Below the pieces are notes generated by a model. It worked only from the letters and a program-made list of their open reading frames with translations, ran no database searches and was not told the origin of the DNA. A DNA stretch of 64,000 nt from Candidatus Levyibacteriota bacterium (GTDB taxonomy: Bacteria; Patescibacteriota; Microgenomatia; Levybacterales; UBA12049): assembly GCA_016432345.1 (NCBI GenBank), contig CP066685.1, forward strand, positions 695,740-759,739. Direction: 5' to 3'. The first letter of the stretch is position 1. The number at the start of each line of letters is the position of its first letter. Both the position numbers and the translations under genes were made by a program. Below are positions 10,380 to 59,958 of this stretch, piece after piece.

Positions 10380-10380
10380 A

Positions 10381-36527: not shown

Positions 36528-37565
36528 ATGGAAGAGCAACTAATCGATATTAAAAATGCCGCGCTTTCTTTAATTCTTGATGCAAAAGATAAGGCAGAAC
36601 TCGAGGAAATAAAATTACAATTTTTAGGAAGAAACGGCACATTTACTTTAATATTAAAAGACCTTCCAAAAATCCCAAAAGAAAAAAGGCCTGCCGTTGG
36701 ACAACTAGCTAATAGTGTCAAAATAACGATCTCTGACGCAATTGATAGACAAAACTTAAAACTAAAAACCGAAAAACCAAAACAGCAAAAAGATGTTCTT
36801 GATGTTACCATGCCTGGCCACAAACCGCCGCTTGGACACCATCATCTTATTACCCAAGCAATTTCAGAGATTACTGCTATATTTGAAAAAATTGGTTTTA
36901 CCCGCGTCAAATACCCAGAGGTCGAATGGGATTGGTACGCCTTTGAAGGATTGAATTTTCCTAAAGATCACCCAGCCCGAGACGACTGGGAAACATTTTT
37001 TATCAAACAAAAACCAGATCCTAAAAAAGGCCCGGTTATTTTAACCCCTCATACTTCTTCCGGGCAGATTAGAGAAATGGAACGGGTAAAAACTCCTCCA
37101 ATTAGAATGCTTAACATCGCCAAATGCTACCGAAGACAATCTGACGTTTCTCATTCACCAATGTTTCACCAATTTGAAGGATTAGTAGTAGACAAAAATA
37201 TTTCAATCACACATCTAAAAGGAACGCTTGATTATTTTGTTAAATCATACTTTGGCGCCAACAGAAAATCTCGAATTAGACCATACCATTTTCAGTTTAC
37301 CGAACCGTCATTTGAAGTTGATGTTTCCTGTGGCATTTGTCTTGGCCGAGGATGTAAACTTTGTAAAGCAGGATGGTTGGAAATGGGAGGAGCAGGCATG
37401 GTCCATCCAAATGTTCTAAAATTTGGGGGAATTAATTCTAAAGAGTACTCTGGATTTGCTTTTGGTTGGGGAGTCGAACGAGTGTTGATGATGAAAGAAG
37501 GAATAGAGATAGACGATCTGCGATTATTATATTCCAATAATTTAGATTTCTTAGAGCAATTCTAG
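36528..37565 (+). CDS. pheS: Phenylalanine--tRNA ligase alpha subunit
   Basis: Class II motifs (FPKDHPARD, CYRRQSDVSHSPMFHQFEGL, GWLEMGGAGMVHP); 345 aa. Confidence 0.9.
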   Translation: MEEQLIDIKNAALSLILDAKDKAELEEIKLQFLGRNGTFTLILKDLPKIPKEKRPAVGQLANSVKITISDAIDRQNLKLKTEKPKQQKDVLDVTMPGHKPPLGHHHLITQAISEITAIFEKIGFTRVKYPEVEWDWYAFEGLNFPKDHPARDDWETFFIKQKPDPKKGPVILTPHTSSGQIREMERVKTPPIRMLNIAKCYRRQSDVSHSPMFHQFEGLVVDKNISITHLKGTLDYFVKSYFGANRKSRIRPYHFQFTEPSFEVDVSCGICLGRGCKLCKAGWLEMGGAGMVHPNVLKFGGINSKEYSGFAFGWGVERVLMMKEGIEIDDLRLLYSNNLDFLEQF

Positions 37566-37647
37566 TATCAGCGTATAGTTAATAGCGTCTAGCGTATAGT
37601 TTTAGATTTAACTAAACGCTAATTTCTAAACGCTATACGCTAAATAT
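37566..37647 (+). repeat. Imperfect palindromic repeat element of the AGCGTATAG / CTAAACGCT family filling the pheS-pheT spacer
   Basis: CAGCGTATAGTT, TAGCGTCTAGCGTATAGTT ... CTAAACGCTATACGCTA: inverted arms able to form a long hairpin; shares motifs with 48901-48977 and 49946-49976. Confidence 0.7.
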
Positions 37648-39609
37648 ATGAATATAAAAATTTTAGACAGTTGGCTTCGTCAACACATAAAAACAAAAGC
37701 CACGCCGGAAAAAATTGCCGAAATTTTATCTCTTACTTCTGTATCTGTTGAAAGAATTGAAAAAATCGACAATGATTTTATCTATGATATCGAAGTAACA
37801 ACAAACAGGCCAGACATTATGTCTGTTATTGGGCTGGCACGAGAAACTGCAGCAGCCTTAAAACAGTCCGGAATCGATGCAACATATATTCCTTATCTAC
37901 CAAAAGGGCTCGAAAAAGTAAAAAGTAATACCAAAGTTATTATTAAAAATGATGCAAGACTGGTAAATAGAATTTGTGCTGTTGTAATGGATGTGAACAT
38001 AAAACCAACTCCGGATATTATTACAAAAAGAATCGAAGCATCAGGCATTCGATCACTCAATAATCTTATTGATATAACAAATTATGTCATGCTGGAAATT
38101 GGTCATCCAACCCATGTCTTTGATTACGATAGATTACTAGAATCTACCCTTATCATTCGAGAGTCTAAAAAAGGAGAAAAAGTTACTACCCTTGATAACA
38201 AAACGCATACACTTCTAGGCGGAGATATTGTGGCAGATAACGGAAAAGGAGAAATTATAGATTTGCTGGGGATTATGGGCACAAAAAACAGTGTGGTAAC
38301 CAACAATACAAAAAGAATACTCTTCTTTATCGACAACAACGATCCTGTTCGCATTAGAAAAACATCTATGTCTTTAGGCATTCGAACAGATGCTGCTGTA
38401 ATAAACGAAAAAAATATCGATCCAACACTTGCTATGACTTCGCTGCTTGCCGGAATCGAGTTATACAAGGAATCGACAGATGGAAAAATGCTCTCCAACA
38501 TCATAGATATCTACCCAAATAAAGTAAAACCAAAAATAGTATCTGTAACACTCAAAAAAATTCAAACCCTTTTGGGCATCAACATAAACCTATCAACTGT
38601 TATACAAATCCTTAAAAGCCTAGAATTTGAAGTAGTAAGTAAAAAAAACGACCAATTGGTAGTTTCTGTACCCAGTTTTAGGACAAACGACGTTACGATA
38701 GAAGAGGATATTTGTGAAGAAGTCGCCCGCCTTTACGGGTACCATAACTTGCCGACTTTGCTTCCTCCACTTTCAAGTATCCAACATTACTCTGTTGAAA
38801 AAAACAGTTTTTATTGGGAGGAACGAATTAAAAATATCCTTAAGTACTGGGGATTTACCGAAATGTATACATATTCGTTGGTTTCAGAAGACTTGTTTGA
38901 TGGACCGGTAGAAAATGCAGTCAAGCTATCAAACCCATTAACAGAAGATATGTTATATCTACGAAAAACACTAATTCCCAGTCTTTTGCAGACGGTAAGA
39001 GAAAATAAAAACCGAGAGTCTATGATGATTTTTGAAATTGCCAATATTTACGAAAAAACAGATGACAAACATCTTCCTAACGAAATCCCAATGCTGGCCG
39101 GCATTGTAAAAAAACAAGATGTAACATTTTTCGACGTCAAGGGAATACTGGAACAGCTTTTTGCCGATGTAGGAATATCAAATATCCAATTCAAAAAAAA
39201 TAAAGAGGGGATAGAAAAAATACATATCCACTGCAATAACTCTGTTATTGGAGAAGTTGAAATCCTGGAAGAAACTTTAATTAACTTTGAAATAAATTTT
39301 GTAAAGTTATTGTCTTTCGTAAACAACAAAAAAGTCTATACCCCAATTGGCAAATATCCGCCAATTATTGAGGACATCGCTTTTATTTTTGAAAAACCAA
39401 TTACAGTTGGAGATGTTATTTCAGAAATAAAAAGCCAAGATCCTCTTATTAAAGAAGTTTCCCTATTAGATGCTTATGAGCATACAAAAACATTTCATAT
39501 TATTTACCAACATAGAGAAAAAAATCTTACTTCAGAGGATGTTGCACCCATCCGGGAAAAAATCCTCAAAGCAATTAAAGAAACCTTCTGTGCAAAAATA
39601 AAAGAATAA
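37648..39609 (+). CDS. pheT: Phenylalanine--tRNA ligase beta subunit, short form (653 aa; apparently lacking the N-terminal EMAP-type tRNA-binding domain)
   Basis: B3/4 and B5 region motifs (DIEVTTNRPDIMSVIGLARE); length about 150 aa less than typical bacterial PheT. Confidence 0.8.
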   Translation: MNIKILDSWLRQHIKTKATPEKIAEILSLTSVSVERIEKIDNDFIYDIEVTTNRPDIMSVIGLARETAAALKQSGIDATYIPYLPKGLEKVKSNTKVIIKNDARLVNRICAVVMDVNIKPTPDIITKRIEASGIRSLNNLIDITNYVMLEIGHPTHVFDYDRLLESTLIIRESKKGEKVTTLDNKTHTLLGGDIVADNGKGEIIDLLGIMGTKNSVVTNNTKRILFFIDNNDPVRIRKTSMSLGIRTDAAVINEKNIDPTLAMTSLLAGIELYKESTDGKMLSNIIDIYPNKVKPKIVSVTLKKIQTLLGININLSTVIQILKSLEFEVVSKKNDQLVVSVPSFRTNDVTIEEDICEEVARLYGYHNLPTLLPPLSSIQHYSVEKNSFYWEERIKNILKYWGFTEMYTYSLVSEDLFDGPVENAVKLSNPLTEDMLYLRKTLIPSLLQTVRENKNRESMMIFEIANIYEKTDDKHLPNEIPMLAGIVKKQDVTFFDVKGILEQLFADVGISNIQFKKNKEGIEKIHIHCNNSVIGEVEILEETLINFEINFVKLLSFVNNKKVYTPIGKYPPIIEDIAFIFEKPITVGDVISEIKSQDPLIKEVSLLDAYEHTKTFHIIYQHREKNLTSEDVAPIREKILKAIKETFCAKIKE

Positions 39610-39613
39610 ACTA

Positions 39614-39653
39614 CTTTTCCACCTTAGAGGTGGAATGCTATTGACACCTTGGG
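39614..39653 (+). repeat. Left REP-like hairpin of the Y1-transposase unit (TTCCACC-TTAGA-GGTGGAA plus downstream CTATTGACACCTT)
   Basis: Perfect 7-bp stem hairpin; its exact reverse complement occurs at 40378-40396. Confidence 0.7.
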
Positions 39654-40353
39654 TATTTTCGTTTACTCTAGCAATATGCCGGGAAGAAAAACGCCACTGG
39701 TAAATAACGAAATATACCACATCTTTAATAGAGGTGTCGCATCGCAACCAACATTTCTCAATAAAAGAGACTATGACAGAGCTTTAGAAACAATTTTCTA
39801 CTATCAAAATAGCATTCCTCCAATAAAATACTCTCGTTTCCTATCTTTATCTACAGAAGATAGAACTGAGTTATTCGAAAATTTAGCAAAACAGAAAAAT
39901 TTTCTAGTAGAAATCATTTCGTACTGCCTTATGCCTAATCACTTTCATTTTCTGTTGAGACAAATAAAAGATGGTGGTATTGCAAAGTTTATAAGTAACT
40001 TTACAAATAGTTATACCCGCTTTTTCAATACAAAACGAGAAAGAACAGGGCCGCTTTTTACAGGAAAGTTTAAATCTGTAAGGATTGAAACACAAGAACA
40101 ACTTCTCCACGTTTCAAGATATATCCATTTGAATCCATATACTTCTTTTGTTGCAAAAACACTTAAAGACCTTGAAACTTATCCCTATTCTTCTTTTCCA
40201 GAATTCATTAACAAAGTAAAATCAAATTTTTGTACTAAGGACATTGTTTTAGCTAACTACAAAAATATAGAATCTTATAAACAATTCGTTTTTGACCAAG
40301 CAGACTACCAACGATCATTAGGTCTAATAAAACATCTAACCACAGAGAATTAG
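39649..40353 (+). mobile_element. HUH-Y1 transposase of the IS200 / REP-associated tyrosine transposase (RAYT) type
   Basis: YHIFNRG N-terminal motif, HUH motif MPNHFHFLL, catalytic-Tyr helix VSRYIHLNPY (YIxxNP signature); flanked by inverted REP-like hairpins. Confidence 0.7.
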
Positions 40354-40377
40354 GTATTACCAGAGGTGGCGTATCTG

Positions 40378-40396
40378 TTCCACCTCTAAGGTGGAA
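40378..40396 (+). repeat. Right REP-like hairpin (TTCCACC-TCTAA-GGTGGAA), the exact inverse of the left one
   Basis: Reverse complement of 39617-39635; 22 nt beyond the convergent PBP1A stop. Confidence 0.7.
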
Positions 40397-40418
40397 AATG
40401 ATAACAGGAGAAACTTAG

Positions 40419-42776
40419 TCAAAGTGTTGACGTCGGTGTTGGAATAGAGGTATTGGTTGGCGTTGGAGTAGGAGTATCTGAAACAACCCGCGTTGATTTT
40501 TCGGTTGGAGGGTGATAAAAAGGATCATCTTTATAATGCTCGTTTATCCATTCATTAATACCATCTTGCCATCTGTTTTTTCCATCACCCGAAAATGGAT
40601 CTTCTTCCGCAAAATTAATAAATTTTTTGGTATCGTACTCGTTATGCGCAATTTCTGAATCGCTGGCAAGCTTATTATTATCTGCTTTGGAAACTTTAAA
40701 CTCCTTATATATTGCTGACGGTCCTTGCGGCTGTGTCCCTTTAATATAATATTCTGCTCTGGTTTTTTGTCCGTCCACTGGTAACCCTCCGCCCAAACTA
40801 TCTATAGTTACTGCTGTTACATTATCTGGTTTATTAAATTCTTCATTTGGTTTATTTTTTAGCGCTTCTAAAATAATTCTCCTCCAAATTGGCGCGGCGC
40901 CTGTTACGCCTGACGCCACATTCCCCATTGGACTGTTGTCGTTATTCCCAACCCAAGTCGCCACCAAAATACTTGGCGTCCATCCAATTGTCCAGTTATC
41001 TCTTTTATCATCAGTTGTTCCTGTTTTTACAGCAATTTCTCGTCCAGTAATATTTAAATAACTGTTTTCTCCAAAAGTAATCAGTCTGGCATTATTATCA
41101 AATAATATATGAGAAACAATAAACGCCACCTCGGAACTTAATACTCTTTTTGGCGATGCTTCCTTATTTTCGTACAAAACTTTTCCTTTTCTATCGGTTA
41201 CTTTAAGAATCGCAATCGGTTCAACATGATACCCGCCATTGGCAAACGCGCTGTATGCCGATGCCAATTCCATCATGTGTACCTCGCCGCCGCCAAGTGT
41301 TATAGACAAACCAAAATGTTTCACATTATCATCTGATGGTTCAAAAGTGGAAATACCCATACTATATGCGGTTGTTAACATATTTTTTACACCAACTTGC
41401 GCTAGCATCTTTACAGCCGGAATATTAAGCGAGGATCCAAGCGCAAAACGCATCTGTACCGGCCCATGAAATTTACCATCGTAATTCTTTGGCTCGTAAT
41501 CTTTTCCTCCCTGATTTGGAAATACTGTTTTTGTATCCATAAGAAGTGTCGATGCGCTAAAACCTTTTAAAAGCGCGGTGGCGTATGTTACAGGTTTTAT
41601 AGAAGAACCTGGTTGTCTTAATGCTTGAGTTACCACATTAAATTGTCCATCAAAAGACACTCTTTTTAAAGTTCCCGACTCTGTGGCAAAGAAATCTTTA
41701 CTCCCCACCATTGCTAAAATTTCTCCATTCTTAGGATTTATCACAATGCTTGCTCCGTTACCAACCTTAAGAGAAGCCGCAGCATCAACTTCTTCTTTTA
41801 CAATCTCTTCTGCTTTTTGTTGTAGTTTATAATCAATGGTTGTTGTTACCTGTAAACCCCCTTGTTCAACCATATTTTCTCCAAATTTTTTAATAAGTAG
41901 ATCTTTTACATAAAAAGAAAAATGCGGCGCTTTTATAGATTGACTTTTAGATAAAAATTCAACTTTGTCTAAAGATTTTACCGCTTCTTTTTCTTGTTTT
42001 TCTGTAATATAGCCATCCTCCTGCATTCGCCGCAAGACGTCTTTTGTACGATTAATATATGCTTTTTTATTTAACCCATAAGGAGAATAATAAGAAGGAA
42101 GCTGGGGAAACCCAGCTAAAATTGCCGATTCTGCAAGAGTTAAATCTTTGGCTTTTTTGCCAAAATACCCCTCACTTGCCGCCTCAACACCAACCATAGT
42201 TCCTCCATATGGCGCGATATTAAGATAAAGTTCCAGAATCTGATCTTTTTTATACTTTTTATCTACTTGAATTGCTAAAATAAGCTCTTTTATTTTTCGA
42301 GGCAAAGAACGCTCTGATGTTAAAAGCGTATTTTTTACCAACTGCTGCGTCAGTGTTGATCCTCCGGTAACGCGGCGAAATAAAAGCGCATCACGAAAAA
42401 CCCGCAAGTATGCCATGGGAGAAAATCCTTGATTTGTGTAAAAATCTTTGTCTTCAATGGCAATTGTTGCGAGTTTTATACTTTTAGGAATATCTTTTAA
42501 TTCCACATACGTTCTATTTTGATCTTCAAAAATATCGTATAGTAAAACCTCATTTCTGTCGAAAATCTTTGTTGATTGCGACAAGTTGCTGGCTGACAAC
42601 TTGCCAGGAGTTGGCAAATCGCGGCCATACCAGAAAAAAAGCGCTATCACAAATAAAACAAGTCCAATTGTCCCAAAAAAAACCAGTTTCACCAAACCGC
42701 TAATTAACAAAAGGTTTTTAGATCTATAAACTCGATCGCGTCTTCGACTTCTAAATCCTAACATGATTATACGCAT
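40419..42776 (-). CDS. Class A penicillin-binding protein (PBP1A; glycosyltransferase plus transpeptidase) with a Thr/Pro-rich C-terminal tail
   Basis: N-terminal TM anchor; GT51 motifs (EDKDFYTNQGFS, RKIKELILA); transpeptidase SxxK/SxN/KTG (STLK, SLN, KTGTT); C-terminus TPTPTPTNTSIPTPTSTL. Confidence 0.85.
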   Translation of the reverse strand: MRIIMLGFRSRRRDRVYRSKNLLLISGLVKLVFFGTIGLVLFVIALFFWYGRDLPTPGKLSASNLSQSTKIFDRNEVLLYDIFEDQNRTYVELKDIPKSIKLATIAIEDKDFYTNQGFSPMAYLRVFRDALLFRRVTGGSTLTQQLVKNTLLTSERSLPRKIKELILAIQVDKKYKKDQILELYLNIAPYGGTMVGVEAASEGYFGKKAKDLTLAESAILAGFPQLPSYYSPYGLNKKAYINRTKDVLRRMQEDGYITEKQEKEAVKSLDKVEFLSKSQSIKAPHFSFYVKDLLIKKFGENMVEQGGLQVTTTIDYKLQQKAEEIVKEEVDAAASLKVGNGASIVINPKNGEILAMVGSKDFFATESGTLKRVSFDGQFNVVTQALRQPGSSIKPVTYATALLKGFSASTLLMDTKTVFPNQGGKDYEPKNYDGKFHGPVQMRFALGSSLNIPAVKMLAQVGVKNMLTTAYSMGISTFEPSDDNVKHFGLSITLGGGEVHMMELASAYSAFANGGYHVEPIAILKVTDRKGKVLYENKEASPKRVLSSEVAFIVSHILFDNNARLITFGENSYLNITGREIAVKTGTTDDKRDNWTIGWTPSILVATWVGNNDNSPMGNVASGVTGAAPIWRRIILEALKNKPNEEFNKPDNVTAVTIDSLGGGLPVDGQKTRAEYYIKGTQPQGPSAIYKEFKVSKADNNKLASDSEIAHNEYDTKKFINFAEEDPFSGDGKNRWQDGINEWINEHYKDDPFYHPPTEKSTRVVSDTPTPTPTNTSIPTPTSTL

Positions 42777-42815
42777 AGTATAGCAAATTTCAGTTTTTCT
42801 TGTTATACTTTAGGC

Positions 42816-43988
42816 ATGGATGCAATCACGGAATTATTAACGCGAGGCGTTGATACCATCTATCCCGATAAGGTTGAACTCGAAAAAGTGCTTCGAGAAG
42901 GGCAAAAACTACGAGTCTACCAGGGATTCGACCCAACTTCCCCACAGTTTCATATTGGACATATGGTAGGACTACGTAAACTTTCTCAATGGCAAAATTT
43001 GGGACATGAAGTAATCTTTCTTATTGGAGATTTTACCGCTATGACAGGCGACCCAACAGGAAAAGATAAAACCCGAATTCCTTTAACTCGAGAGCAGGTT
43101 TTAGAAAATGCAAAAACATACAAAGAACAGGCATCGAAAATTCTTAATTTTAGTGGAAAAAATCCAACCGTTATCAAATATAACAGCGATTGGCTGGCAA
43201 AAATGTCTGTATTGGAATTTGCAAATTTAGCTTATCATTTATCTCTTAACCAGATAATAAAAAGAGATATGTTTCAAAAAAGAATTGCGAATAATATGGA
43301 TATCTCTATGACAGAAATTTTTTATCCGCTTATGCAAGGATACGACTCTGTTGCGATGAATGTTGATGTGGAAGTCGGAGGAAGTGATCAAATGTTTAAC
43401 ATGATGACAGGACGCGACCTTATGCATAAAATAAAAAGAAAAAACAAATTCGTTATGACTACACCTCTTCTCACAGATTCACAAGGAGTAAAAATAGGTA
43501 AAACCGAAGGCAATTCGATTGCTCTTACCGACAAACCCGAAGATTTGTTTGGGAAAATAATGACACTCCCAGATGATGTTATGCAAAAGGGCTTTGAATA
43601 TCTTACCGACGTGCCAATGGATGAAATTAATTCAATGAACAATGATTTTATGAAAAATAAAAAAAGGCTGGCATATGAAATTGTTAAACAACTTAATAAT
43701 GAAAGCGCGGCAAAAGAGGCCGAAAGATATTTTGAAAAAACAGTTCAGAAAAAAGAAATACCAAGCGATATCAAGGAATTTTCGTGGTCTACCGGAAAGT
43801 CTTTGGTAGATTTTCTTACTGAATCAAAACTCGCAACAAGCAAAACTGATGCCAAACGCTTAATCGAACAAGGCGGAGTGGCAATTGATGAAGAAATAAT
43901 AACCGATTCCAACGCGCCGTTTTCGGGAACAGATGACTCTATCGTACGAGTTGGAAAAAGAAAATTTATTAGAGTCTCTATAAAGTAA
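42816..43988 (+). CDS. tyrS: Tyrosine--tRNA ligase
   Basis: Class I HIGH (FHIGHMVG) and KMSKS-like (KIGKTEG) motifs; S4-like C-terminal domain; 390 aa. Confidence 0.85.
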   Translation: MDAITELLTRGVDTIYPDKVELEKVLREGQKLRVYQGFDPTSPQFHIGHMVGLRKLSQWQNLGHEVIFLIGDFTAMTGDPTGKDKTRIPLTREQVLENAKTYKEQASKILNFSGKNPTVIKYNSDWLAKMSVLEFANLAYHLSLNQIIKRDMFQKRIANNMDISMTEIFYPLMQGYDSVAMNVDVEVGGSDQMFNMMTGRDLMHKIKRKNKFVMTTPLLTDSQGVKIGKTEGNSIALTDKPEDLFGKIMTLPDDVMQKGFEYLTDVPMDEINSMNNDFMKNKKRLAYEIVKQLNNESAAKEAERYFEKTVQKKEIPSDIKEFSWSTGKSLVDFLTESKLATSKTDAKRLIEQGGVAIDEEIITDSNAPFSGTDDSIVRVGKRKFIRVSIK

Positions 43989-43989
43989 C

Positions 43990-45507
43990 ATGCAAAATAA
44001 ATACGCTTTAATTAGTGTTTTTGATAAAACTGGAATTGCCGATTTTGCAAAACAAATTGTAAATTTTGGATACAAAATTATTTCAACTGGCGGTACTGCA
44101 AAAACCCTCCAAGAAAATGGAGTACAAATTATCCCCATTCAAGATATAACAGGCAGCCCCGAAAGCTTTGACGGCAGAATGAAAACAATTAGTTTTCAAA
44201 TTGAGTCTGGAATTTTATTCGATCGGTCAAATTTAAAACACGTTAAGCAAGCTGAAGCACTAAAAATAAAACCGATTGACCTTGTTATCTGTAATCTCTA
44301 TCCATTTGAAAAAGAGCAAACAATCGAAAATATTGACGTGGGCGGCCCGACTATGATTAGGGCAGCAGCTAAGAATTTTAAAAACGTAATTGTTGCCGTT
44401 GATCCTAATGATTATGAAAAAGTTGCAAATGAACTCAAAAAACCCACGCCTGAATTAAGAAAAAAACTTGCCGCCAAAGCGTTTGCGCATTTATCTCTTT
44501 ATGACAGTCAAATTGCAAAATATCTCACATCTGAACTTTTTCCGAATGAAGTTACTATTCCAGGTAGAAAAGCAAAAGACCTTCGCTATGGAGAAAACCC
44601 TCATCAACAAGCAAGCCTTTATTTTTTTCCAAATACCAATTCTCCACTCAAAAAACTAGAACGACTATGGGGCAGAGAACTATCCCTGCTAAATGTTACC
44701 GATATAAACGCAGGTCTGGCATCAGTAAAAATGTTTAACGAACCCGCAGCAGCTGTAATAAAGCATAACAACCCATGCGGTATTGCTCTTGGCAAAAATG
44801 CAGCCGAAGCCCTAAAGCTGGCAATTGCAGCAGATCCCGAATCTGCCTTCGGCGGAGTTATGGTATTAAACAAGCCAATCAATACAGCAACTGCAAGCGT
44901 TATCACAATGTTTAAAGATGAAAAAAAAAGTAATGTAGATATACTAGCAGCGCCAGAAATAGATAAAGAAGCCTTTGCTGTTCTATCGAAACTTCGAAAA
45001 AGTATGGGAATTTATGTATTTGGCGCTATACCAAAAATAACAGATCCAATGGATATCAAACATATCGAAGGCGGTTTTATTCTCCAAACCGCAGATGATG
45101 TTTTGAATGGATTTTCTGGTTGGGAAGTAGTTACGCAGAAAAAACCAACCGAGCAACAACTACAGCAAATGCAGATTGCCTGGAAATTTATTACTAGAAT
45201 TAAATCAAATGCTGTCATTGTTGTTGACAAAGATTTGCCAATGACACGAGGCATTGGCACAGGCCAAACATCAAGAGTTAGAGCAGTAAAAATTGCGCTT
45301 GAACAGGCAGGGGATCATATCAAAAATGCAATACTTGCCAGCGACAGCTTTTTCCCATTTGGCGACTCTGTGGCACTTGCGGCAAACAAGGGTATTTCAG
45401 CAATAGTCCAACAAGGCGGATCAATCAATGACCAATCATCCATTGATGCGGCAAACAAAGCAGGAATTGCGATGGTCTTTACCCACCGCCGCGCGTTTTG
45501 GCACTAA
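43990..45507 (+). CDS. purH: Bifunctional AICAR transformylase / IMP cyclohydrolase
   Basis: MGS-like N-terminus (ALISVFDKTGI...ISTGGTAK) plus an AICARFT domain; 505 aa. Confidence 0.85.
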   Translation: MQNKYALISVFDKTGIADFAKQIVNFGYKIISTGGTAKTLQENGVQIIPIQDITGSPESFDGRMKTISFQIESGILFDRSNLKHVKQAEALKIKPIDLVICNLYPFEKEQTIENIDVGGPTMIRAAAKNFKNVIVAVDPNDYEKVANELKKPTPELRKKLAAKAFAHLSLYDSQIAKYLTSELFPNEVTIPGRKAKDLRYGENPHQQASLYFFPNTNSPLKKLERLWGRELSLLNVTDINAGLASVKMFNEPAAAVIKHNNPCGIALGKNAAEALKLAIAADPESAFGGVMVLNKPINTATASVITMFKDEKKSNVDILAAPEIDKEAFAVLSKLRKSMGIYVFGAIPKITDPMDIKHIEGGFILQTADDVLNGFSGWEVVTQKKPTEQQLQQMQIAWKFITRIKSNAVIVVDKDLPMTRGIGTGQTSRVRAVKIALEQAGDHIKNAILASDSFFPFGDSVALAANKGISAIVQQGGSINDQSSIDAANKAGIAMVFTHRRAFWH

Positions 45508-45634
45508 AATATGGTATTATAGATATATGGACACATTTCGAAAACACCAGTGGATTTGGAAAATAATCGTTGTTGTTTCTTCTTTGGCGCTTATCGCAAC
45601 ATCTGTGCTTCCTTTCCTACCGCGTTAATACCGT

Positions 45635-47653
45635 ATGAATCTTAAAACGCCAATTGCCAATGCGGATAGACCGTATAAAATGTATGCCTCGCGCCTGGAA
45701 AAGCTGGGCATAATAAAACTAGAAGATTTCTTATATCATGTTCCGTCCCGCTACGAAGACTATTCTATTATTTCTTCTATACGACATTTGCAAGCTGGAG
45801 AAATTGTTACTATTCAAGGAACTGTTGCTGCAATAGAAAACGAGTACGCTAAAAACTATAAAAAATTACAAAAAGCAACAATAGAAGATAACAGCGGAAC
45901 AATAGATGTTGTTTGGTTTAATCAACAATACATTACTAAAATTATCAAAAAAGGGACAAAAGTTTCTTTGTCGGGCAAAGTTGATTGGTTCTCCCGTAAA
46001 TTAACTATTGCTTCGCCAGAATACGAAATTATGTACGATAATTCAGAACCAATTCATACTGGCAGAATTGTGCCGATTTATCCAGAAACAAGAGGTGTTT
46101 CTTCCAAGTGGCTGCGCCGCCAAGTATATAAAATTCTACAAGAACAAAATGTACTCGAGTACATTCCTGATTCAATTATTATAAATAATTCTCTTACCAA
46201 CATTACAGATGCAATACAACAAATACATTTTCCCAAAAATATAGAAAATGCAAAAAGAGCCAAAGACCGTTTGGCATTTGACGAACTCTTTTTGCTGCAG
46301 CTTGCATCTTTACAAAGAAGAAACGCTTGGGAAAAACAACTTGTTGGACATCCGTTTTCTATTTCCACATTTCAAAAACAAATAGGGGAGTTTTGGAAAA
46401 GACTGCCATTTACACTAACTGACGCCCAAAAAAGAGCAGTCAAAGATATTTTTGCCGACCTTGCTTCAAAAAAACCAATGAACAGACTACTAGAGGGAGA
46501 CGTAGGAAGCGGAAAGACAGTTGTTTCTGCAATTGCTATGTATGTTGCATATCTTAATGGCTTTCAATCAGTTCTTATGGCGCCAACAGAGATACTCGCA
46601 CAACAACATTTGGCAACGATCTCTAATCTTTTATCTTCATTGGGAGTCAAGGTTGACCTCGTAACAAGCAGCAAAAAGCCGCGAGCCACACGCGCATTTG
46701 ATATTCTTGTTGGCACTCATGCTATTCTTTCGGATAAGATTAATTTAGATAAATTAGGTCTGGTGGTGATTGACGAACAACAGCGGTTTGGTGTTGAGCA
46801 ACGAAGCATTATTCGGCAAAAAGGCAAAAACCCGCATGTCTTAACAATGACAGCAACTCCAATCCCGCGAACTGTGGCATTAACACTCTATGGAGATTTA
46901 GATTTATCTTATCTTGACGAAATGCCAAAAGGCAGACAAAAAATAAAAACCTGGCTTGTCCCTCCACAAAAACGAGAAAACGCTTACAAATGGATAAATA
47001 AGCAAATTCAAGAAAATAGGGATCAAGTTTTTATTATTTGTCCATTTATTGAACAGTCGGAAAGCATGCAAACCGTTAAAGCAGCGGCAATTGAATTTGA
47101 GCGCCTGCAAAAAGAAGTTTTCCCAAACTTAAAAATTGGCTTGCTTCATGGCAAACTAAAATCCAAAGAAAAAGACGAAGTGCTGCGGCAATTTAAAGAG
47201 AAAAAATTTGATATACTCGTTGCTACACCAGTAGTTGAAGTAGGTATAGATATCCAAAACGCCACCATTATGCTTATTGAAGCATCCGAACGTTTTGGAC
47301 TAGCACAGCTTCATCAACTGCGAGGTCGGGTAGGCAGGGGAGACAAACAATCATATTGTTTACTATTTACAGAATCAAAAAGCCCACAAACTCTGGAAAG
47401 ACTAAAAGCCTTAGAAACCATGCATGTCGGAGCAGAACTTGCAGAACTGGACTTACGCCTTCGCGGGCCTGGAGAAATGTATGGCACCATGCAGCACGGC
47501 GCAAAACAACTTAAAGTTGCTTCATTTTCTGATTTTCCACTGATCGAAAAAACAAGAAGAGCGACAGAAAGTATTTTTCCAAAACTTTCTCAATATCCAA
47601 ATCTGCAAGAAAAATTACATAGTATAATTATTCAAGAAGTCTCTCCAGATTAA
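45635..47653 (+). CDS. recG: ATP-dependent DNA helicase RecG
   Basis: Wedge/OB N-terminal region; SF2 helicase motifs (LLEGDVGSGKT, DEQQRFGV, TATPIPRT, QLRGRVGRG); 672 aa. Confidence 0.9.
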   Translation: MNLKTPIANADRPYKMYASRLEKLGIIKLEDFLYHVPSRYEDYSIISSIRHLQAGEIVTIQGTVAAIENEYAKNYKKLQKATIEDNSGTIDVVWFNQQYITKIIKKGTKVSLSGKVDWFSRKLTIASPEYEIMYDNSEPIHTGRIVPIYPETRGVSSKWLRRQVYKILQEQNVLEYIPDSIIINNSLTNITDAIQQIHFPKNIENAKRAKDRLAFDELFLLQLASLQRRNAWEKQLVGHPFSISTFQKQIGEFWKRLPFTLTDAQKRAVKDIFADLASKKPMNRLLEGDVGSGKTVVSAIAMYVAYLNGFQSVLMAPTEILAQQHLATISNLLSSLGVKVDLVTSSKKPRATRAFDILVGTHAILSDKINLDKLGLVVIDEQQRFGVEQRSIIRQKGKNPHVLTMTATPIPRTVALTLYGDLDLSYLDEMPKGRQKIKTWLVPPQKRENAYKWINKQIQENRDQVFIICPFIEQSESMQTVKAAAIEFERLQKEVFPNLKIGLLHGKLKSKEKDEVLRQFKEKKFDILVATPVVEVGIDIQNATIMLIEASERFGLAQLHQLRGRVGRGDKQSYCLLFTESKSPQTLERLKALETMHVGAELAELDLRLRGPGEMYGTMQHGAKQLKVASFSDFPLIEKTRRATESIFPKLSQYPNLQEKLHSIIIQEVSPD

Positions 47654-47696
47654 AATAACCTTGCGGTTAAAGAAAAAACAAGATATAATACAACGT

Positions 47697-47900
47697 ATGC
47701 CGCAGGAGCCAAAAAAACGCCATTCAAGACAAAGACAAGGAAAAAGAAGAGCAAGTATTCATTTACAAATACCAAAAGGCGCAGCGTGCGCAAATTGCAG
47801 TAACATTACATTGCCTCATACCGTATGTAAACAATGCGGATACTATGATGGACGACAAGTTTTGGCAATAAAAAAGAATAAAAATGAAAACCGCTCTTGA
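47697..47900 (+). CDS. rpmF: 50S ribosomal protein L32
   Basis: [15 protein letters not shown]...CANC...[17 protein letters not shown] zinc-ribbon L32 pattern. The upstream in-frame ATG at 47661 is possible but would give an atypical N-terminal extension. Confidence 0.7.
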
Positions 47901-48240
47901 TCCCCGTCATAAAACGCGGCAAAAACTTATCGAAGAATTGTTTGCGATGGATTTTAATAATCAAAAATCATCAGAAAAGACCAAAAGTATATTTTCTCAA
48001 AAACAAGAAATAGATGCGGTGATTCAAAAAGCCGCAACAGAATTTCCCATAGATAAAATCAATAAAATTGATCTGGCAATCTTGCGGTTGGCTGTCTATG
48101 AATTATTACTCGAAAAAACCCAGCCCAAAAAAGTTATTATTGACGAAGCAATAGAACTGGCCAAAGAATACGGCGGGGATTTAAGCCCGAGTTTTATTAA
48201 CGGCGCTTTAGGCAAAATTATTTCTTATGCAGCTTCCTAA
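47884..48240 (+). CDS. nusB: Transcription antitermination factor NusB
   Basis: [17 protein letters not shown]... and [13 protein letters not shown] helices; 118 aa. Confidence 0.75.
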
Positions 48241-48889
48241 ATTTAATAATAAACAATTATTACAACAGGCGTTTACTCATCGCTCGTATCTTAACGAAAC
48301 AAGAGAAAATATAGAGTCTAATGAACGCCTTGAATTTTTAGGCGACAGCATTTTATCTTTTGTCGTTTCCAACTATTTATATGAAACATATCCCAAGTTT
48401 GATGAAGGAACGCTTACCAACTTGCGCTCTTTGCTGGTCAATACCAAAAGCTTAGCCGAAAGCGCAAGACAGCTTAAATTTGGAGATATGCTACGGCTTT
48501 CTAAAGGCGAGGAAGAATCAAAAGGACGACAAAACCAAAGTCTTTTAGCAGATTGTTTTGAAGCATACATCGGGGCGCTATTTTTAGACCAAGGACTTGA
48601 AGCTGTAAATACGTTTATTTTGCAAACTATTTTGGAGAAGATAAAAGATATTATTACCAAAAAATCATTAAAAGATCCCAAAAGCTTGCTGCAGGAATAT
48701 GTTCAATCTCAAAAACAAAAATCTCCGGTGTATAAAGTAATAAATGAAGAAGGTCCTGCCCACGCCAAAACATTTACGGTAGGAGCATATATAGATAATA
48801 TTTTACAAGGAAAAGGTATTGGCAAATCCAAACAGCAAGCAGAAGAATACGCAGCTAACGTAGCACTTGAGAAGCTGCAGAAAAAATGA
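48227..48889 (+). CDS. rnc: Ribonuclease III
   Basis: RNase III signature [11 protein letters not shown]; C-terminal dsRBD; 220 aa. Confidence 0.9.
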
Positions 48890-48900
48890 TAAAATAACAA

Positions 48901-48977
48901 TTAGCGTATAGATACTAGCATCTAGCGTTTAGTTAAAAAAACTATACGCTAATTTACTAGACGCTAAACGCTGTATT
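48901..48977 (+). repeat. Palindromic repeat element (TAGCGTATAG ... CTATACGCTA ... TAGACGCTAAACGCT) filling the rnc-rpsP spacer
   Basis: Same motif family and arm arrangement as 37566-37647; ends 1 nt before the rpsP ATG. Confidence 0.7.
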
Positions 48978-49208
48978 ATGAGTGTTGTTATTCGGCTAAC
49001 ACAAATGGGTAAAAAAGGCGAGCGAAAGTTTCGTGTTGTGGTAAAAGAAAAACGAAGCCGCAGGGACGGCAAACCAGTAGAATCTTTAGGCTGGTACGAA
49101 AAACGAACAGATAAGGTAATAAAAAATATAGATCGGGAGCGTTTTGAGTATTGGCTGCAAAAGGGAGCCAAACCAACCGCCACAGTTACCAAACTTTTGA
49201 CTGTATGA
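48978..49208 (+). CDS. rpsP: 30S ribosomal protein S16
   Basis: MSVVIRLTQMGKKGERKFRVVV canonical S16 N-terminus; 76 aa. Confidence 0.9.
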   Translation: MSVVIRLTQMGKKGERKFRVVVKEKRSRRDGKPVESLGWYEKRTDKVIKNIDRERFEYWLQKGAKPTATVTKLLTV

Positions 49209-49444
49209 AAAAGGCTTTACAATATATTGTTTCTTCAATTGTTGATAATCCAAAAGACGCAAAAATAGCAGAGCAGAAACAGGATGAAATGACACAACTT
49301 ATTATAACAGTAAATCCAGAAGATATGGGTAAGATAATAGGTAAAGAAGGTAAAGTTATCCGAAGCATCCGAAATGTCATGAAAATTTTAGCCATGAAAC
49401 ACAACGAAAAAATAAATATTTCATTAAGCGAAACCCCTCAATGA
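49205..49444 (+). CDS. KH-domain RNA-binding protein (YlqC/UPF0109 family)
   Basis: GKIIGKEGKVIRSIR GxxG KH loop; conserved position between rpsP and trmD; start overlaps the rpsP stop (ATGA). Confidence 0.75.
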   Translation: MKKALQYIVSSIVDNPKDAKIAEQKQDEMTQLIITVNPEDMGKIIGKEGKVIRSIRNVMKILAMKHNEKINISLSETPQ

Positions 49445-50166
49445 AAATCTCCATTCTAACGCTTTTCCCCGAAATGTTTGGGGGCGCTTTTGATCATTCA
49501 ATCATAAAAAAAGCGCAAGAAAAAAAAATTCTTAGTATTTCGTACGTTAACATCCGCGATTTTGGTATCGGCAAACACCGCATCGTTGATGACACACCCT
49601 ATGGCGGGGGAGCAGGCATGGTGATTAGAGTAGATGTGATTGCAAACGCTCTCGCACACGCCACACGCCACACGCCACACGCCACACGCCGAATTCTTCT
49701 TGATCCGCAGGGAGAAAAATTCACTCAAAAAAAAGCGCAAGAATTATCAAAATACGATCATCTGATCTTAATTTGCGGCCGCTACGAGGGAGTGGACGAA
49801 CGGGTGCGAAAATTTGTTGACGAGGAAATTTCGATCGGCGACTATGTCTTAACAGGCGGAGAAATTCCCGCCATGGTTATTACTGATGCTGTTTGTAGAT
49901 TGCTGCCAGATGTAATTAAAGAAGAATCGCCAAAAAACGAATCTTTTTCCAACCATACGCTAGACGCTAAACGCTATACGCTATTAGAGTACTCCCAATA
50001 CACCCGTCCGCCGATTTTTAATGGCAAAAAAGTTCCAATTATTCTTACCAAAGGAGATCATCAAAAAATAGCAGGGTGGAGAAATCAAGAAGCGCTAAAA
50101 AAAACAAAAAAGAAAAGGCCGGATTTATTGCAGCTTGAAAGCGGCAAGTTGATTCAAAAGCGATAA
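49441..50166 (+). CDS. trmD: tRNA (guanine37-N1)-methyltransferase TrmD carrying two in-frame repeat insertions
   Basis: SPOUT-fold TrmD motifs (ILTLFPEMF, DDTPYGGGAGMV, ICGRYEGVDERV, VLTGGE). Extra segments ATRHTPHATR (from the CGCCACA repeats) and HTLDAKRY (from the TAGACGCTAAACGCTATACG repeat) are present relative to canonical TrmD. Confidence 0.85.
   Translation: MKISILTLFPEMFGGAFDHSIIKKAQEKKILSISYVNIRDFGIGKHRIVDDTPYGGGAGMVIRVDVIANALAHATRHTPHATRRILLDPQGEKFTQKKAQELSKYDHLILICGRYEGVDERVRKFVDEEISIGDYVLTGGEIPAMVITDAVCRLLPDVIKEESPKNESFSNHTLDAKRYTLLEYSQYTRPPIFNGKKVPIILTKGDHQKIAGWRNQEALKKTKKKRPDLLQLESGKLIQKR
49645..49682 (+). repeat. Heptanucleotide tandem repeat (CGCCACA), about 5 units, inside the trmD coding sequence
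   Basis: GCACA-CGCCACA-CGCCACA-CGCCACA-CGCCACA-CGCCG read directly in the sequence. Confidence 0.9.
49946..49976 (+). repeat. Half-copy of the AGCGTATAG/TAGACGCTAAACGCT repeat element embedded in frame in trmD
   Basis: ATACGCTAGACGCTAAACGCTATACGCTATT matches the right arm of the elements at 37566-37647 and 48901-48977. Confidence 0.7.
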
Positions 50167-53222: not shown

Positions 53223-53268
53223 CTTTCTATACGATTAGCGTATCAGTTTATCACATAAACTGTCAATG

Positions 53269-55582: not shown

Positions 55583-56139
55583 ATTTTTCCGCAGGCAGAC
55601 GAATCTATATTGTTAAACTTTAAACTTGCTTGCGGATTTGCTCCTCCTCTTTCTAAACTAGCATACAACCAATAGGCTTGTCCATTGCTGCTGGCATAAT
55701 ATACGTACCTTCTAGTATCTGTGTCTTTAGGCAAAACAGCCATGTAGGGCGACCATTCCTCACCCCAATCTATAATTTGGTGATCTGCTTTAAATCCTTT
55801 TATTCTATAGGGAAGCTTGTCCTCTTTTGCTGTGCTTAGTGGATAACTACTATTATCTTTATGGTACTGCTCCAAAGCTTTTTGCATTTGTTCAAGGTCG
55901 GATTTTCTTATATTATCATTTGCTTTTTGCATTTGCGCCAGGGGATCAAAGTAAACAAATGCGCTTATCCCCAAAACACCAATCACAGCCATCGCCGCCA
56001 AAAGCTCAATTAGGGTAAAACCAGTCTGCAAGCGTATAGCAGGTAGCGTATAGCGTATAGTTTTTAATAAATTTTGCATTTTGAACTTTGAATTACTTTC
56101 CATCGTAGCAACGAAGAAAATATATGTCAAGGAAAACAA
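55543..56139 (-). CDS. Type IV pilin with a long leader; 5' end duplicated at 59809-59940
   Basis: ...LQTGFTLIELLAAMAVIG...KANDNIRKSDLEQMQKALEQY pilin N-domain. The first roughly 45 codons and 80 nt of upstream sequence are identical to those of the pilin gene at 58786-59940. Confidence 0.7.
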   Translation of the reverse strand: MFSLTYIFFVATMESNSKFKMQNLLKTIRYTLPAIRLQTGFTLIELLAAMAVIGVLGISAFVYFDPLAQMQKANDNIRKSDLEQMQKALEQYHKDNSSYPLSTAKEDKLPYRIKGFKADHQIIDWGEEWSPYMAVLPKDTDTRRYVYYASSNGQAYWLYASLERGGANPQASLKFNNIDSSACGKICNYAVSSPNVSP

Positions 56140-56161: not shown

Positions 56162-57289
56162 TTATGCAATAAAATTTAGGTAGTTTTTAGGCGTAACTGC
56201 CGCAAAAGCCGCTTGGGGATATGAAGTTATCCAATCCTTTGGCGCAACCACTTTTTTCTTGTTAGACCACTTGCATTCATACCCAAATAACTTACCGTCG
56301 CGGTCCTCCACCAAATCTATCTCCTGCTGACTATATGTGCGCCAAAAATACTGGTTGCTATAAATTCCTTTATATGAACGTTTTTTAAGCCTCTCAACCA
56401 CTACAAAATTCTCCCACAATTTTCCACCATCATCCCTCATATCAAGGCCGTTAAATTGCGCTATTATTCCATTACGTATCCCGTTGTCCAGAAAAAAATA
56501 TTTATTTTTACTAGTAATTTCAGAACGCAGATTTCTGCTTAATCCTCCTAATGATAGGATTACAAAAGATTTCTCCAACAAATCAAGATATCTGGCAACT
56601 GTTTTAATATCAATGCCAAGTTTCATTGATAACTCATTTAAAGATACTTCGCTGCCCAATTGAAATGCCAATAATTTTAACAAATCCAGTAATACTTTTG
56701 ATCCTTTGATTTTTTCTAATGACAGTACATCCTTTAACAAATAAGAATTAACTATTTCTTCAATAATACTTACTTTTTCTTGCTTGGTTTTAGCGGTTAA
56801 TACTTCTGGATAAACGCCAAAAATTAAAAATTCATTTAATCTTTCTCTAAGCTCGTGCTTATTATAAATCTCTGAAAGCTCAAGTTGAGAAATAGGAAAT
56901 AACGTAACAGTATTTTTTCTACCGGTTAAAGGTTCGCCAATCTGGTGGGAAAGGTCAAAAGACGATGATCCTGTGGCAATCACCTTAATATTTGGTATTT
57001 GATCTATAATAATCTTTAAACCCATGCCTATATTAGGAATTTGTTGCGCTTCATCAATTGCGATCAATTCATACCCTTGGGCATACTCCAAAATTTGGGA
57101 AAAATCCTGCGATCCTAAAATTTGTTGAGTACGGATATTATCTCCTATATCCAGCTTATATTTTAATTGAGTGCTGTTTAAATAATCCTGCAGCATAGTA
57201 GTTTTGCCTACACGTCTTGGCCCATAAATTACCAGCACTTTTTGTGGTTTTAACAGCTTTCCAATATCATATATTCTAGGTATAAGCAT
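56162..57289 (-). CDS. AAA+ superfamily ATPase (COG1373 / AAA_14 plus DUF4143-like)
   Basis: Walker A IYGPRRVGKTT, Walker B LIAIDEAQ; 375 aa; a paralog lies divergently downstream. Confidence 0.7.
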   Translation of the reverse strand: MLIPRIYDIGKLLKPQKVLVIYGPRRVGKTTMLQDYLNSTQLKYKLDIGDNIRTQQILGSQDFSQILEYAQGYELIAIDEAQQIPNIGMGLKIIIDQIPNIKVIATGSSSFDLSHQIGEPLTGRKNTVTLFPISQLELSEIYNKHELRERLNEFLIFGVYPEVLTAKTKQEKVSIIEEIVNSYLLKDVLSLEKIKGSKVLLDLLKLLAFQLGSEVSLNELSMKLGIDIKTVARYLDLLEKSFVILSLGGLSRNLRSEITSKNKYFFLDNGIRNGIIAQFNGLDMRDDGGKLWENFVVVERLKKRSYKGIYSNQYFWRTYSQQEIDLVEDRDGKLFGYECKWSNKKKVVAPKDWITSYPQAAFAAVTPKNYLNFIA

Positions 57290-57462: not shown

Positions 57463-58746
57463 ATGAATTACTACCCAAGAAAACTGCTAAGTAAAATAGA
57501 ACCCTTTTATAAACTTAGGGAGATTATCGCCATAGTTGGCGCGAGACAAGTGGGTAAAACTACCCTTCTAAAAATTATTTTTGATCATTTATCAAAAAAA
57601 CATAAATGTTTATTTTTAACTTTTGAAAATCGTTCTGATTTAGAAATATTTGACACAGATATTGAAAACTTTAAAAAACTGTATTGTTTGGATTACGAAA
57701 TAATTTTTATAGATGAGTTTCAATATGCTAAAGATGCCGGGCAAAAACTAAAATATCTGTATGATACTACCAAAGTGAAGTTTTTTATTAGTGGTTCTGC
57801 TTCGCTGCAGATAAAAGAAGCAGGTAAATACCTGGTAGGCAGAGTGTTTACTTTTGATTTACATTCATTTTCTTTTGAGGAATACTTGGAAGTAACAAAT
57901 CCTGCTTTGTATCATATTGTCAAAAAAGGCTTTAACATAGTAAAAAATCTTTTAGCAGGAAACGAACCTAAAATCACAAATTTCATAAAAAGCGAAGCCC
58001 TAAATGCTAAATTAACAAATCTTTTCGAACAGTATTTGATATTTGGAGGTTATCCTAGAGTAGTAACTTCTAAAACAGACGACGAAAGAAAACAAGTTCT
58101 TGCCAGCATCATAGATAATTATTTATTGCGGGATATTAGTTCTTTACTGCATTTGGCAACGGAAAATCAGTTGTTAAATTTAAGCCGATTTTTAAGTCTG
58201 CAAACAGGTAATTTAATCTCTTACACAGAGTTATCTACAACTATCGGCATGCCTTACAAAGAAGTTAAAAACCACATCAAAATACTTGAGCAGACTTTTG
58301 TTGTTAATTTGGTTTATCCATATTTTGGCAATAGAAGAACAGAACTAGTTAAAAACCCTAAAGTATACTTTTTGGACAACGGTTTTAGAAATAAAGTGAT
58401 TGACAATTTTTCTTCTTTGTCAGACAGGTCGGATATGGGGGCATTAGCAGAAAATTTTATATTCAATAGTCTAATTAGAGGCAACATAATAGATTCAAAC
58501 AAGGTAAATTTTTGGAGAACAAAATCACAGGCCGAGGTTGATTTTATAGTTTTTAGAGAAGGGGAAATTATCCCTGTGGAAGTAAAATACGCTCCCATCA
58601 ATCAAAAAGTTGCGGGGAAAAGTCTGTTTAGTTTTATCAATAAATACTCTCCCAAAACAGCAGTTATTACTACCAACAAAGAATTTGGGGCGCGTCAAAT
58701 TAAAAACACAAATCTATACTTTATTCCTATTTTCTTTTTAGACTAG
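57463..58746 (+). CDS. AAA+ superfamily ATPase (COG1373 / AAA_14 plus DUF4143-like), paralog
   Basis: Walker A IVGARQVGKTT, Walker B IIFIDEFQ; 427 aa. Confidence 0.7.
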   Translation: MNYYPRKLLSKIEPFYKLREIIAIVGARQVGKTTLLKIIFDHLSKKHKCLFLTFENRSDLEIFDTDIENFKKLYCLDYEIIFIDEFQYAKDAGQKLKYLYDTTKVKFFISGSASLQIKEAGKYLVGRVFTFDLHSFSFEEYLEVTNPALYHIVKKGFNIVKNLLAGNEPKITNFIKSEALNAKLTNLFEQYLIFGGYPRVVTSKTDDERKQVLASIIDNYLLRDISSLLHLATENQLLNLSRFLSLQTGNLISYTELSTTIGMPYKEVKNHIKILEQTFVVNLVYPYFGNRRTELVKNPKVYFLDNGFRNKVIDNFSSLSDRSDMGALAENFIFNSLIRGNIIDSNKVNFWRTKSQAEVDFIVFREGEIIPVEVKYAPINQKVAGKSLFSFINKYSPKTAVITTNKEFGARQIKNTNLYFIPIFFLD

Positions 58747-59940: not shown

Positions 59941-59958
59941 GAAACCCCAGGTGGTAAA

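Follow-up and report, generated by a model that had tools for sequence, protein, structure and literature searches.

Heptamer-phased palindromes at operon junctions and within genes of Levybacteria and other Microgenomates

A 64,000-nucleotide stretch of a Candidatus Levyibacteriota genome, analyzed here as a whole and referred to as the window, holds similar palindromes in the spacer between pheS and pheT and in that between rnc and rpsP, with related repeats inside trmD and at the 5′ ends of two pilin genes. What are these repeats, and how did they come to lie inside operons and genes? Genomes of the candidate phyla radiation (CPR), to which Levybacteria belong, are tiny and tightly packed, and repeats residing in operon junctions of 0-5 nt and in the essential proteins TrmD and DnaX show which insertions can be tolerated there. 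A preliminary description of this DNA had pointed out the repeat clusters and named the genes around them, and both observations are borne out. The 10-mer TAGCGTNTAG has 16 exact matches in the window vs 0.19 expected from shuffled sequence, and all 16 fall into five clusters. The names pheS, pheT, rnc, rpsP and trmD hold, khpA can be added to them, and the two pilins carry an N-methyl motif. By itself, the hexamer TAGCGT is at background in the window (31 occurrences vs 26 expected), so the enrichment signal comes wholly from the clusters. As single motifs are not enriched outside the clusters, we rejected a role as a DNA-uptake sequence.

Tandem Repeats Finder reported a period of 7 at every cluster. 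The repeating unit is therefore not the 'core nonamer' first proposed but a phased heptamer, (TAGCGTN)n or (CTANACG)n. An nhmmer profile built from 82 arms of the element and run across the window at E<=10 found seven arms and no other match. These arms make up two complete palindromes of ~75 bp, one per spacer, and three further sites with single 33-nt arms. The features of the window are as follows.

37569-37642, full element 1: left arm 37569-37601 (minus strand), loop 37602-37609, right arm 37610-37642 (plus strand); arm profile
48902-48972, full element 2: left arm 48902-48934 (minus strand), loop 48935-48939, right arm 48940-48972 (plus strand); arm profile
49951-49983, plus strand: solo arm in frame in trmD, AACCATACG CTAGACG CTAAACG CTATACG CTA; arm profile
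56031-56062, minus strand: solo arm at the 5′ end of a type IV pilin gene, AACTATACG CTATACG CTACCTG CTATACG CT; arm profile
59841-59872, minus strand: solo arm at the 5′ end of the second pilin gene, identical to the arm at 56031-56062; arm profile
53225-53245, minus strand: possible two-unit remnant, GATACG CTAATCG TATAG, 4 nt 5′ of the ATG at 53222; below significance
49655-49690, plus strand: perfect heptamer array (CACACGC)x5 in trmD, in frame in a variable loop; family membership uncertain
56070-56094, minus strand: a second, different heptamer array, CAAAGTT CAAAATG CAAAATT, adjoining the pilin arm and duplicated at 59880-59904

Element 1 occupies the spacer between the pheS stop codon (37563-37565) and the pheT ATG (37648), and element 2, with the same polarity, that between the rnc stop codon (48887-48889) and the rpsP ATG (48978). 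Several of the smaller sites had been described before and need adjustment. The copy in trmD is in frame as claimed, with its position (given as 49946-49976) slightly shifted relative to the arm. An arm is indeed present at both pilin 5′ ends, but the two do not count separately: the segments 55988-56134 and 59798-59944, each of 147 nt and spanning the upstream region, the heptamer arrays and the N-terminal coding part, are 97% identical, and the second arm lies within this duplication and thus reflects no independent insertion. At 53225-53245, where a further match was claimed, the arm profile gave nothing at E<=10. The stretch from one pilin gene to the other contains two DUF4143/AAA_14 ATPase genes (56162-57289 and 57463-58746).

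Copies beyond the window allowed the design of the element to be read from many examples. Scanning one genome per species with a pattern for the central hairpin yielded 39 loci, about 35 with the whole ~80-bp architecture. Outside the window, 34 full copies from about 20 MAGs share the architecture seen in it. The carriers are Levy-, Davies-, Curtiss- and Woesebacteria and other Microgenomates or Patescibacteria MAGs. The element was also seen in several binchicken co-assemblies entered as 'uncultured Gammaproteobacteria' MAGs (L007, L011, L017-L022 and others); for at least one of them, comparison with a Levyibacteriota MAG (L012 vs L014) gave 83-92% identity over 7 kb, so the gammaproteobacterial label is unreliable. 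In Oceanihabitans and a MAG labeled 'DBS2' only the bare hairpin is present, and these look like chance matches. The hairpin pattern found no match in IMG/VR, on which ground a phage origin was rejected.

From the center outward, each arm consists of AA, four phased heptamers CTA[A/G/T]ACG and CT(A), ~33 nt in all. The variable base of the heptamer is nearly never C (A 72, G 63, T 31, C 1). We considered adenine mutagenesis of the kind found in diversity-generating retroelements (DGRs) as the source of this variable position and dropped it, as the neighboring adenines are invariant. In each arm one unit has given way to a distinctive filler, by which the arms fall into two types: A (F-F-d-F; fillers include CTAGAAG and CTATTCT) and B (F-d-F-F; CTAATTT(A) or the 8-nt unit CTAATTTA). 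A full element is built as rc(A)-loop-B or rc(B)-loop-A; it is therefore no mirror palindrome, and its polarity is intrinsic. Element 1 reads rc(A: F F d F)-loop-B (F d F F), and the right arm of element 2 includes CTAATTTA. Loop length varies from 3 to 14 nt among the full copies and from 5 to 8 nt in those of the window, and the inner ends of the arms, AGTT/AACT, recur across copies. With TAG every 7 nt, an arm of 7-7-7 spacing closes all three reading frames; the 8-nt filler keeps one frame open, which makes full copies able to sit within ORFs.

The inner units follow a further rule. In none of the 34 full copies do both carry the same N, where 36% would be expected (p=2.5e-7, an optimistic value given that the copies are partly related), and in 33 of the 34 one arm has A and the other G or T. 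The stem thus always contains a mismatch or wobble, without exception in 34 copies. On the sense strand of copies flanked by co-directional genes (25 in L005-L042 and the window), the inner mismatch is C.A or A.A in 18/23 and U.G or U.U in 5 (p about 0.01, based on crude gene calls and partly related copies), with the consequence that the arm adjoining the downstream gene usually has the inner unit CTAAACG. Arm-type polarity (A/B) showed no bias relative to gene direction, 4 vs 5.

A reading in which each site arose by heptamer slippage of its own, with nothing mobile, draws some encouragement from the perfect (CACACGC)x5 in trmD, which suggests that slippage acts here, and from the strain-variable heptamer number in Coxiella (PMC4990558). 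It does not account for the recurrence of 4+4 units, filler units, AGTT/AACT inner ends and A/B polarity at dozens of unrelated loci in many MAGs, nor for a 72-nt copy that is 98.6% identical at two unrelated loci. We regard local microsatellites as largely refuted and barely credible as an explanation for the family.

Are the elements then long-standing parts of the operons in which they lie? Comparison of orthologous spacers, proposed earlier as a check, revealed presence/absence polymorphism. Across 404 kb around 80 PheS loci, whose PheS is 61-77% identical to that of the window, TAGCGTNTAG does not occur once, and the element is absent from all 70 of these loci in which the pheS-pheT junction could be read. 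About 45 of the 70 relatives have a spacer of 0-5 nt (TAAnATG); the remaining spacers contain other small inserts, several of them heptamer-phased but built of other units (CTAGTAA, GATTTNN, TGAAAAT, CCAAATN). We also compared syntenic contigs of the closest TrmD relatives at the rnc-rpsP and trmD sites. The rnc-rpsP junction is 106 nt long and contains a full element of the same polarity as that of the window in L164/L165, and is empty in L162 (21 nt) and L166 (13 nt). Taken together, the filled and empty junctions indicate that the elements are insertions and not conserved structures. This also bears on the position of element 2 next to rnc: it is common to one relative and absent in two, so we treat the adjacency as coincidental, and no functional link to rnc is indicated.

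At the pheS-pheT junction of four loci (L045, L048, L057, L061) we observed a different palindromic insert of ~85-120 nt with the ends ATGAATCCCGTTAGAA...TTCTAACGGGATG; several element families have invaded this junction independently. Yet another small palindromic family, with ends like GTCATTGCGA / TGTCATCCTGAG...CCTCAGAATGACA, is represented at L022 1180-1320, L027 2595-2690 and L164 9924-10000; it sits precisely within the loops of two heptamer elements and also fills the khpA-trmD spacer of a relative.

The positions of the copies could also suggest a host cis-regulatory array, in which the heptamers are RNA or DNA binding sites for a regulator of the downstream gene. Arms typically stop 2-13 nt before a start codon, in either direction, and the operons concerned include translation-related ones (pheST, rpsP-trmD and, in L024, rplL); the possible orientation bias, with C.A or A.A on the sense strand in 18/23 copies at p about 0.01, would fit as well. 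However, nearly all relatives have the same junctions without the element, copies are also found between convergent genes and within coding sequence, and proximity to a start codon is expected of any surviving insert where spacers measure 0-5 nt. The elements also contain no promoter- or terminator-like consensus: neither includes sigma-70 promoter hexamers (-35/-10) or a GC-rich stem followed by a T-run terminator, and we rejected promoter or terminator identity on that basis. We consider regulation of the downstream gene quite unlikely as the explanation for the family. A promoter-like site does occur at the 3′ end of rnc (48867-48895, TTGAGA-17-TAAAAT, 10/12 matches, with an upstream TG); going by this consensus match only, a transcript started there would begin at about the first base of element 2, and the hairpin would form the 5′ end of the rpsP transcript.

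A regulatory role has been put forward for a similar repeat. TAACTGA heptamer arrays lie just 5′ of start codons, in regions poor in Shine-Dalgarno (SD) sites, in Beggiatoaceae, Cyanobacteria and Bacteroidetes, and those of Beggiatoaceae were proposed as cis-regulatory sites, in an account that does not mention S23p (PMC4679880). Heptamer direct-repeat families such as the cyanobacterial STRR and these TAACTGA repeats share with the window family the 7-nt unit, head-to-tail arrays (2-6 units) that stop shortly before start codons, the scarcity of SD sites, stop codons within the units and occasional copies inside ORFs, and there too the orthologous spacers of relatives are shorter and free of repeats (PMC4679880). 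They differ in being mostly direct arrays of one orientation, whereas the window elements are fixed inverted 4+4 structures with filler units and a defined center (PMC4679880).

Insertion has not been confined to spacers. The trmD arm codes for NHTLDAKRYTL and lengthens the interdomain linker by ~8 residues net; against solved TrmD structures its segment appears as an 8-residue insertion there. Only a sub-clade has the arm: NY[TS]L[DNG]AKRYT occurs in the TrmD proteins P0001-P0004, of which P0002-P0004 are from three relatives, and is absent in P0005-P0008, and the nearest TrmD relatives of P0001-P0004 read ESFST-PILEY at the arm site. At the nucleotide level, the arm (AACTATACGCTAGACGCTAAACGCTATAC[G/C]CTA) is found in L162 and L164 and missing in L166. 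The (CACACGC)x5 array elsewhere in trmD encodes HATRHTPHATR, and its unit ACGCCAC differs by one base from the family unit ACGCTAC; among relatives, L164 has a degenerate heptamer-phased form (CCACAAG CCACGAG CCACAAG) and L162 and L166 have none. As the array measures 35 nt, adding or losing one unit would put the gene out of frame. The pilin arm at 56031-56062 is either translated, from an ATG at 56079 with the leader MQNLLKTIRYTLPAIRLQTG, or part of the 5′ UTR, with a TTG start right after the arm that would yield the leader MQTG followed by FTLIE; the candidate ATG falls within the second heptamer array (56070-56094).

In other Microgenomates even full copies lie in frame within genes, namely in DnaX (L016 and L039, at the same site) and in a DHH-family protein (L018 and L029). 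Copies may persist where the harm is small, that is, at operon junctions of 0-20 nt and, in frame, in flexible protein loops (TrmD, DnaX, the DHH protein). Rickettsia palindromic elements (RPEs) are likewise short palindromes tolerated in frame in conserved protein genes as well as in spacers. RPEs are not known to have a sequence relationship to the window elements or a heptamer substructure, and they belong to a different host phylum.

What would such an insertion do to a transcript? Both full elements are predicted to fold as hairpins on either strand, with energies of -24.5 to -29.8 kcal/mol and z-scores of -3.6 to -4.7, in agreement with the long hairpins first proposed. Base pairs form only in the inner unit (12 bp), in the outer one (9 bp) and at the intervening CTA/TAG triplets, and the stems are broken by two 4x4 internal loops in addition to the obligatory mismatches. 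Rfam gave no match at the gathering threshold or at E<=1 over 37400-50100, and we therefore rejected identity with a known RNA family for this region. A transcribed full copy would form an imperfect hairpin over ~32 positions, the base of which would bring the stop codon on its 5′ side close to the start codon on its 3′ side. By analogy with the stems of rRNA intervening sequences (IVSs), the stem of a full copy is probably an RNase III substrate. A cut would separate pheS from pheT and rnc from rpsP into distinct transcripts, which should be tolerable where most translation starts without SD pairing. That seems to be the case in this Levybacteria genome: by a loose definition, SD-like motifs precede only 13/60 window genes (long ORFs), and upstream regions are AT-rich. 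Counting against the RNase III step are the internal loops and mismatches that interrupt the stems, as well as the harm that efficient cleavage of a full copy within dnaX would do. The missing SD before pheT and rpsP is a genome-wide trait and is not replaced by the element. With SD scarce genome-wide (13/60 window genes) and an arm-to-ATG distance of 2-13 nt, we discarded the idea of the element as an SD substitute or a maker of leaderless mRNA.

Our preferred reading, which we hold to be probable, is that these repeats form a small, non-coding, insertion-polymorphic palindromic family of Levybacteria and other Microgenomates, consisting of IVS-type stems that lack an ORF, are selfish or neutral and, by analogy, probably serve as RNase III substrates. 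From their distribution alone we infer that the elements are mobile. Two otherwise unrelated loci, L022 and L042, have only a 72-nt element in common, 98.6% identical. Copies are more similar within a MAG than between MAGs (0.81 vs 0.76, p=1.6e-4, with related copies included). Logan contigs carrying pheS end 33 nt beyond the stop codon, inside the left arm, or switch to another gene there, which makes the element a practical cause of assembly breaks. One such contig, from the same population as the window (L002, 2094-3014), passes from the left arm of element 1 into an oxidase-like ORF, and the arm encodes the C-terminus of that ORF, ...NYTLDAINYTLILELL. Either the assembly was joined through the repeat here, or another copy has become fused to the end of a gene.

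Mobility of a miniature element raises the matter of what moves it. The elements might depend on a transposase, as an IS-derived MITE or as a REP/REPIN mobilized by a RAYT (HUH) enzyme. They are indeed palindromic, short, multi-copy and insertion-polymorphic; the conserved stem mismatch is as in REP hairpins (0/34 inner pairs complementary); and the other palindromic elements nested in some loops mark loops as insertion targets. With a MITE they share terminal inverted repeats (the ~33-nt arms), small size (~75 bp) and multiple copies (five sites in 64 kb), and with REP/REPINs and the Correia elements of Neisseria the form of dispersed imperfect palindromes of 70-150 bp in operon spacers with conserved stem mismatches. 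Correia hairpins are RNase III substrates. Yet comparison of filled with empty pheS-pheT, rnc-rpsP and trmD sites revealed no target-site duplication, which sets the elements apart from MITEs at all three site pairs and from the TA duplication of Correia elements. In ~800 kb of retrieved loci no transposase is bounded by arms, nor was a RAYT found. The GTAG-type REP signature is absent, and in contrast to strictly extragenic REPs, copies lie within genes, in frame in trmD, dnaX and the DHH-family gene. Of the MITE- or REP-like unit suggested in the preliminary description, what finds support is its small size and mobile character, in view of empty junctions, polymorphism, near-identical copies at unrelated loci and contig breaks; its classing as a classical MITE or an extragenic REP is not supported. 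We consider dependence on a transposase unlikely.

TIGR arrays, which accompany TIGR-Tas systems and are common in CPR, were also considered. In such arrays, 36-nt units with two variable spacers of 8-10 nt follow one another in tandem, accompanied by box C/D-like motifs and a neighboring Tas gene with a Nop domain (PMC12045711). The window elements are solitary palindromes with variable parts of <=4-5 nt and no 36-nt periodicity, and this identity was rejected.

A connection to a protein family emerged from copies that are not empty. In L030, two arms lie 400 nt apart, and a 123-aa gene stands at the loop position, between AGTT and AACT. TAGCGTN arrays and the central hairpin also flank a homologous gene in an Ignavibacteriaceae MAG (L006). 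Against TIGR02436, 'four helix bundle protein', these two genes and one in L024 scored E=1e-34 to 1e-39, and the DGR protein Avd gave weaker matches; TIGR02436 corresponds to the Avd-like PF05635 family, '23S rRNA intervening sequence protein' (S23p). Four-helix-bundle genes are the only genes bracketed by arms in the retrieved loci. Around the L024 gene the inverted arrays are made of another heptamer, GGTATTT / AAATACN, and units differ elsewhere too: all 12 plasmid loci with four-helix-bundle genes (from Nostoc, Calothrix, Anabaena, Pseudanabaena, Stanieria, Picosynechococcus, Leptolyngbya, Riemerella, Bernardetia, Gemmatirosa, where the units are 8-mers, and Azospirillum) have short tandem arrays on one or both sides, usually inverted and with a locus-specific unit. 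Among IMG/VR bundle loci, found with a five-sequence alignment, arrays are present in about 22/26, and the two most distant, Avd-like matches are without them. An automated lag-7 test on 33 non-redundant genes, with controls from the same loci, was passed by 20/66 flank windows vs 8/475 control windows (Fisher p=5e-14). Heptamer arrays are thus strongly associated with the four-helix-bundle gene family in the loci examined, a general association that we did not find stated in the searchable literature.

The plasmid locus from Azospirillum lipoferum (L133, plasmid AZO_p2, about 9850-10480) has its four-helix-bundle gene within a 23S rRNA gene, in the helix-45 region, bracketed by the inverted heptamer-phased arrays CAGAGGA CGGATGA CAGAGGA... 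and ...TCCGTCC TCTGTCT TCTGTCA; it is a textbook IVS with the same repeat logic. The IVS of Coxiella has 2-3 GACAGAT heptamers directly before the S23p start, within a 28-bp terminal stem, interrupted by one mismatch and one bulge, that RNase III cuts, and the heptamer copy number differs among strains (PMC4990558). IVSs with an S23p ORF, as in Leptospira, Coxiella burnetii and Azospirillum (L133), thus share with the window family a long imperfect stem from terminal inverted repeats and tandem heptamers in that stem (in IVSs, next to the ORF start), and the TAGCGTN arms of the window family themselves bracket a TIGR02436 gene in L030 and L006. The window copies differ in being without an ORF, multi-copy and located in mRNA spacers and coding sequence rather than in rRNA helices. 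IVS elements are regarded as selfish, and IVS hairpins without an ORF exist, for example in Salmonella.

Bundle cassettes with heptamer arrays were also seen inside PglX-like methyltransferase ORFs (...VGCMFGRYSLD, then the cassette) and between cas6 and cas4 and between cas10 and cmr3, in IMG/VR (L148, L150) and plasmid loci (L126, L129, L130), which suggests that such cassettes split or insulate host genes.

How the window copies relate to these cassettes is a matter of graded likelihood. The 64-kb window contains no four-helix-bundle gene, and with a loop of 5-8 nt and no ORF its copies are at most ORF-less derivatives of bundle cassettes. The preferred reading of IVS-type stems would place their origin in 'stem only' forms ('mini-IVS') of cassettes with inverted heptamer arrays around a four-helix-bundle gene, a member of the gene family that is the hallmark of the classical IVS, and the window copies would then be selfish or neutral. 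A point against this origin comes from the closest relative with a four-helix-bundle gene, the Levybacteria relative L166, where that gene, three genes 5′ of rnc, is bracketed by a long, different inverted repeat. Bundle genes might instead insert into existing palindrome loops, making the association secondary. A transposase-dependent element on which bundle genes merely land would take this form; against it, heptamer arrays flank bundle genes in phyla without this element.

The family combines known kinds of element, namely heptamer repeats, IVS stems and in-frame palindromic elements, and the link to bundle genes joins ORF-less heptamer palindromes, inverted heptamer arrays and 'IVS protein' genes across several phyla. 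Two old puzzles, the heptamer repeats of cyanobacterial type and the function of the S23p/IVS protein, can in this way be drawn into one testable hypothesis. In its widest form, all bacterial tandem-heptamer arrays (CPR palindromes, STRR-like repeats, rRNA IVS repeats) would be the cis-acting ends of a single selfish cassette whose sole protein is a pentameric S23p/Avd-like bundle. That protein would recognize about one heptamer per subunit, in DNA or in an RNA stem, and drive spread or excision, and ORF-less arrays would be MITE-like derivatives. We offer this proposal tentatively, as possible rather than probable; if true, it would give a function to STRR repeats and to the IVS ORF, unexplained for ~30 years.

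On a Calothrix plasmid (L128, 13005-13046), a solitary intergenic array, TAGCGGT TAGCTAA TAGCTAA TAGCCAA, lies 3.8 kb from a four-helix-bundle gene that is itself flanked by a similar unit (TAGCGAT TAGCTGT...). This solitary array may be a cyanobacterial parallel to ORF-less copies that share the heptamer of a resident cassette.
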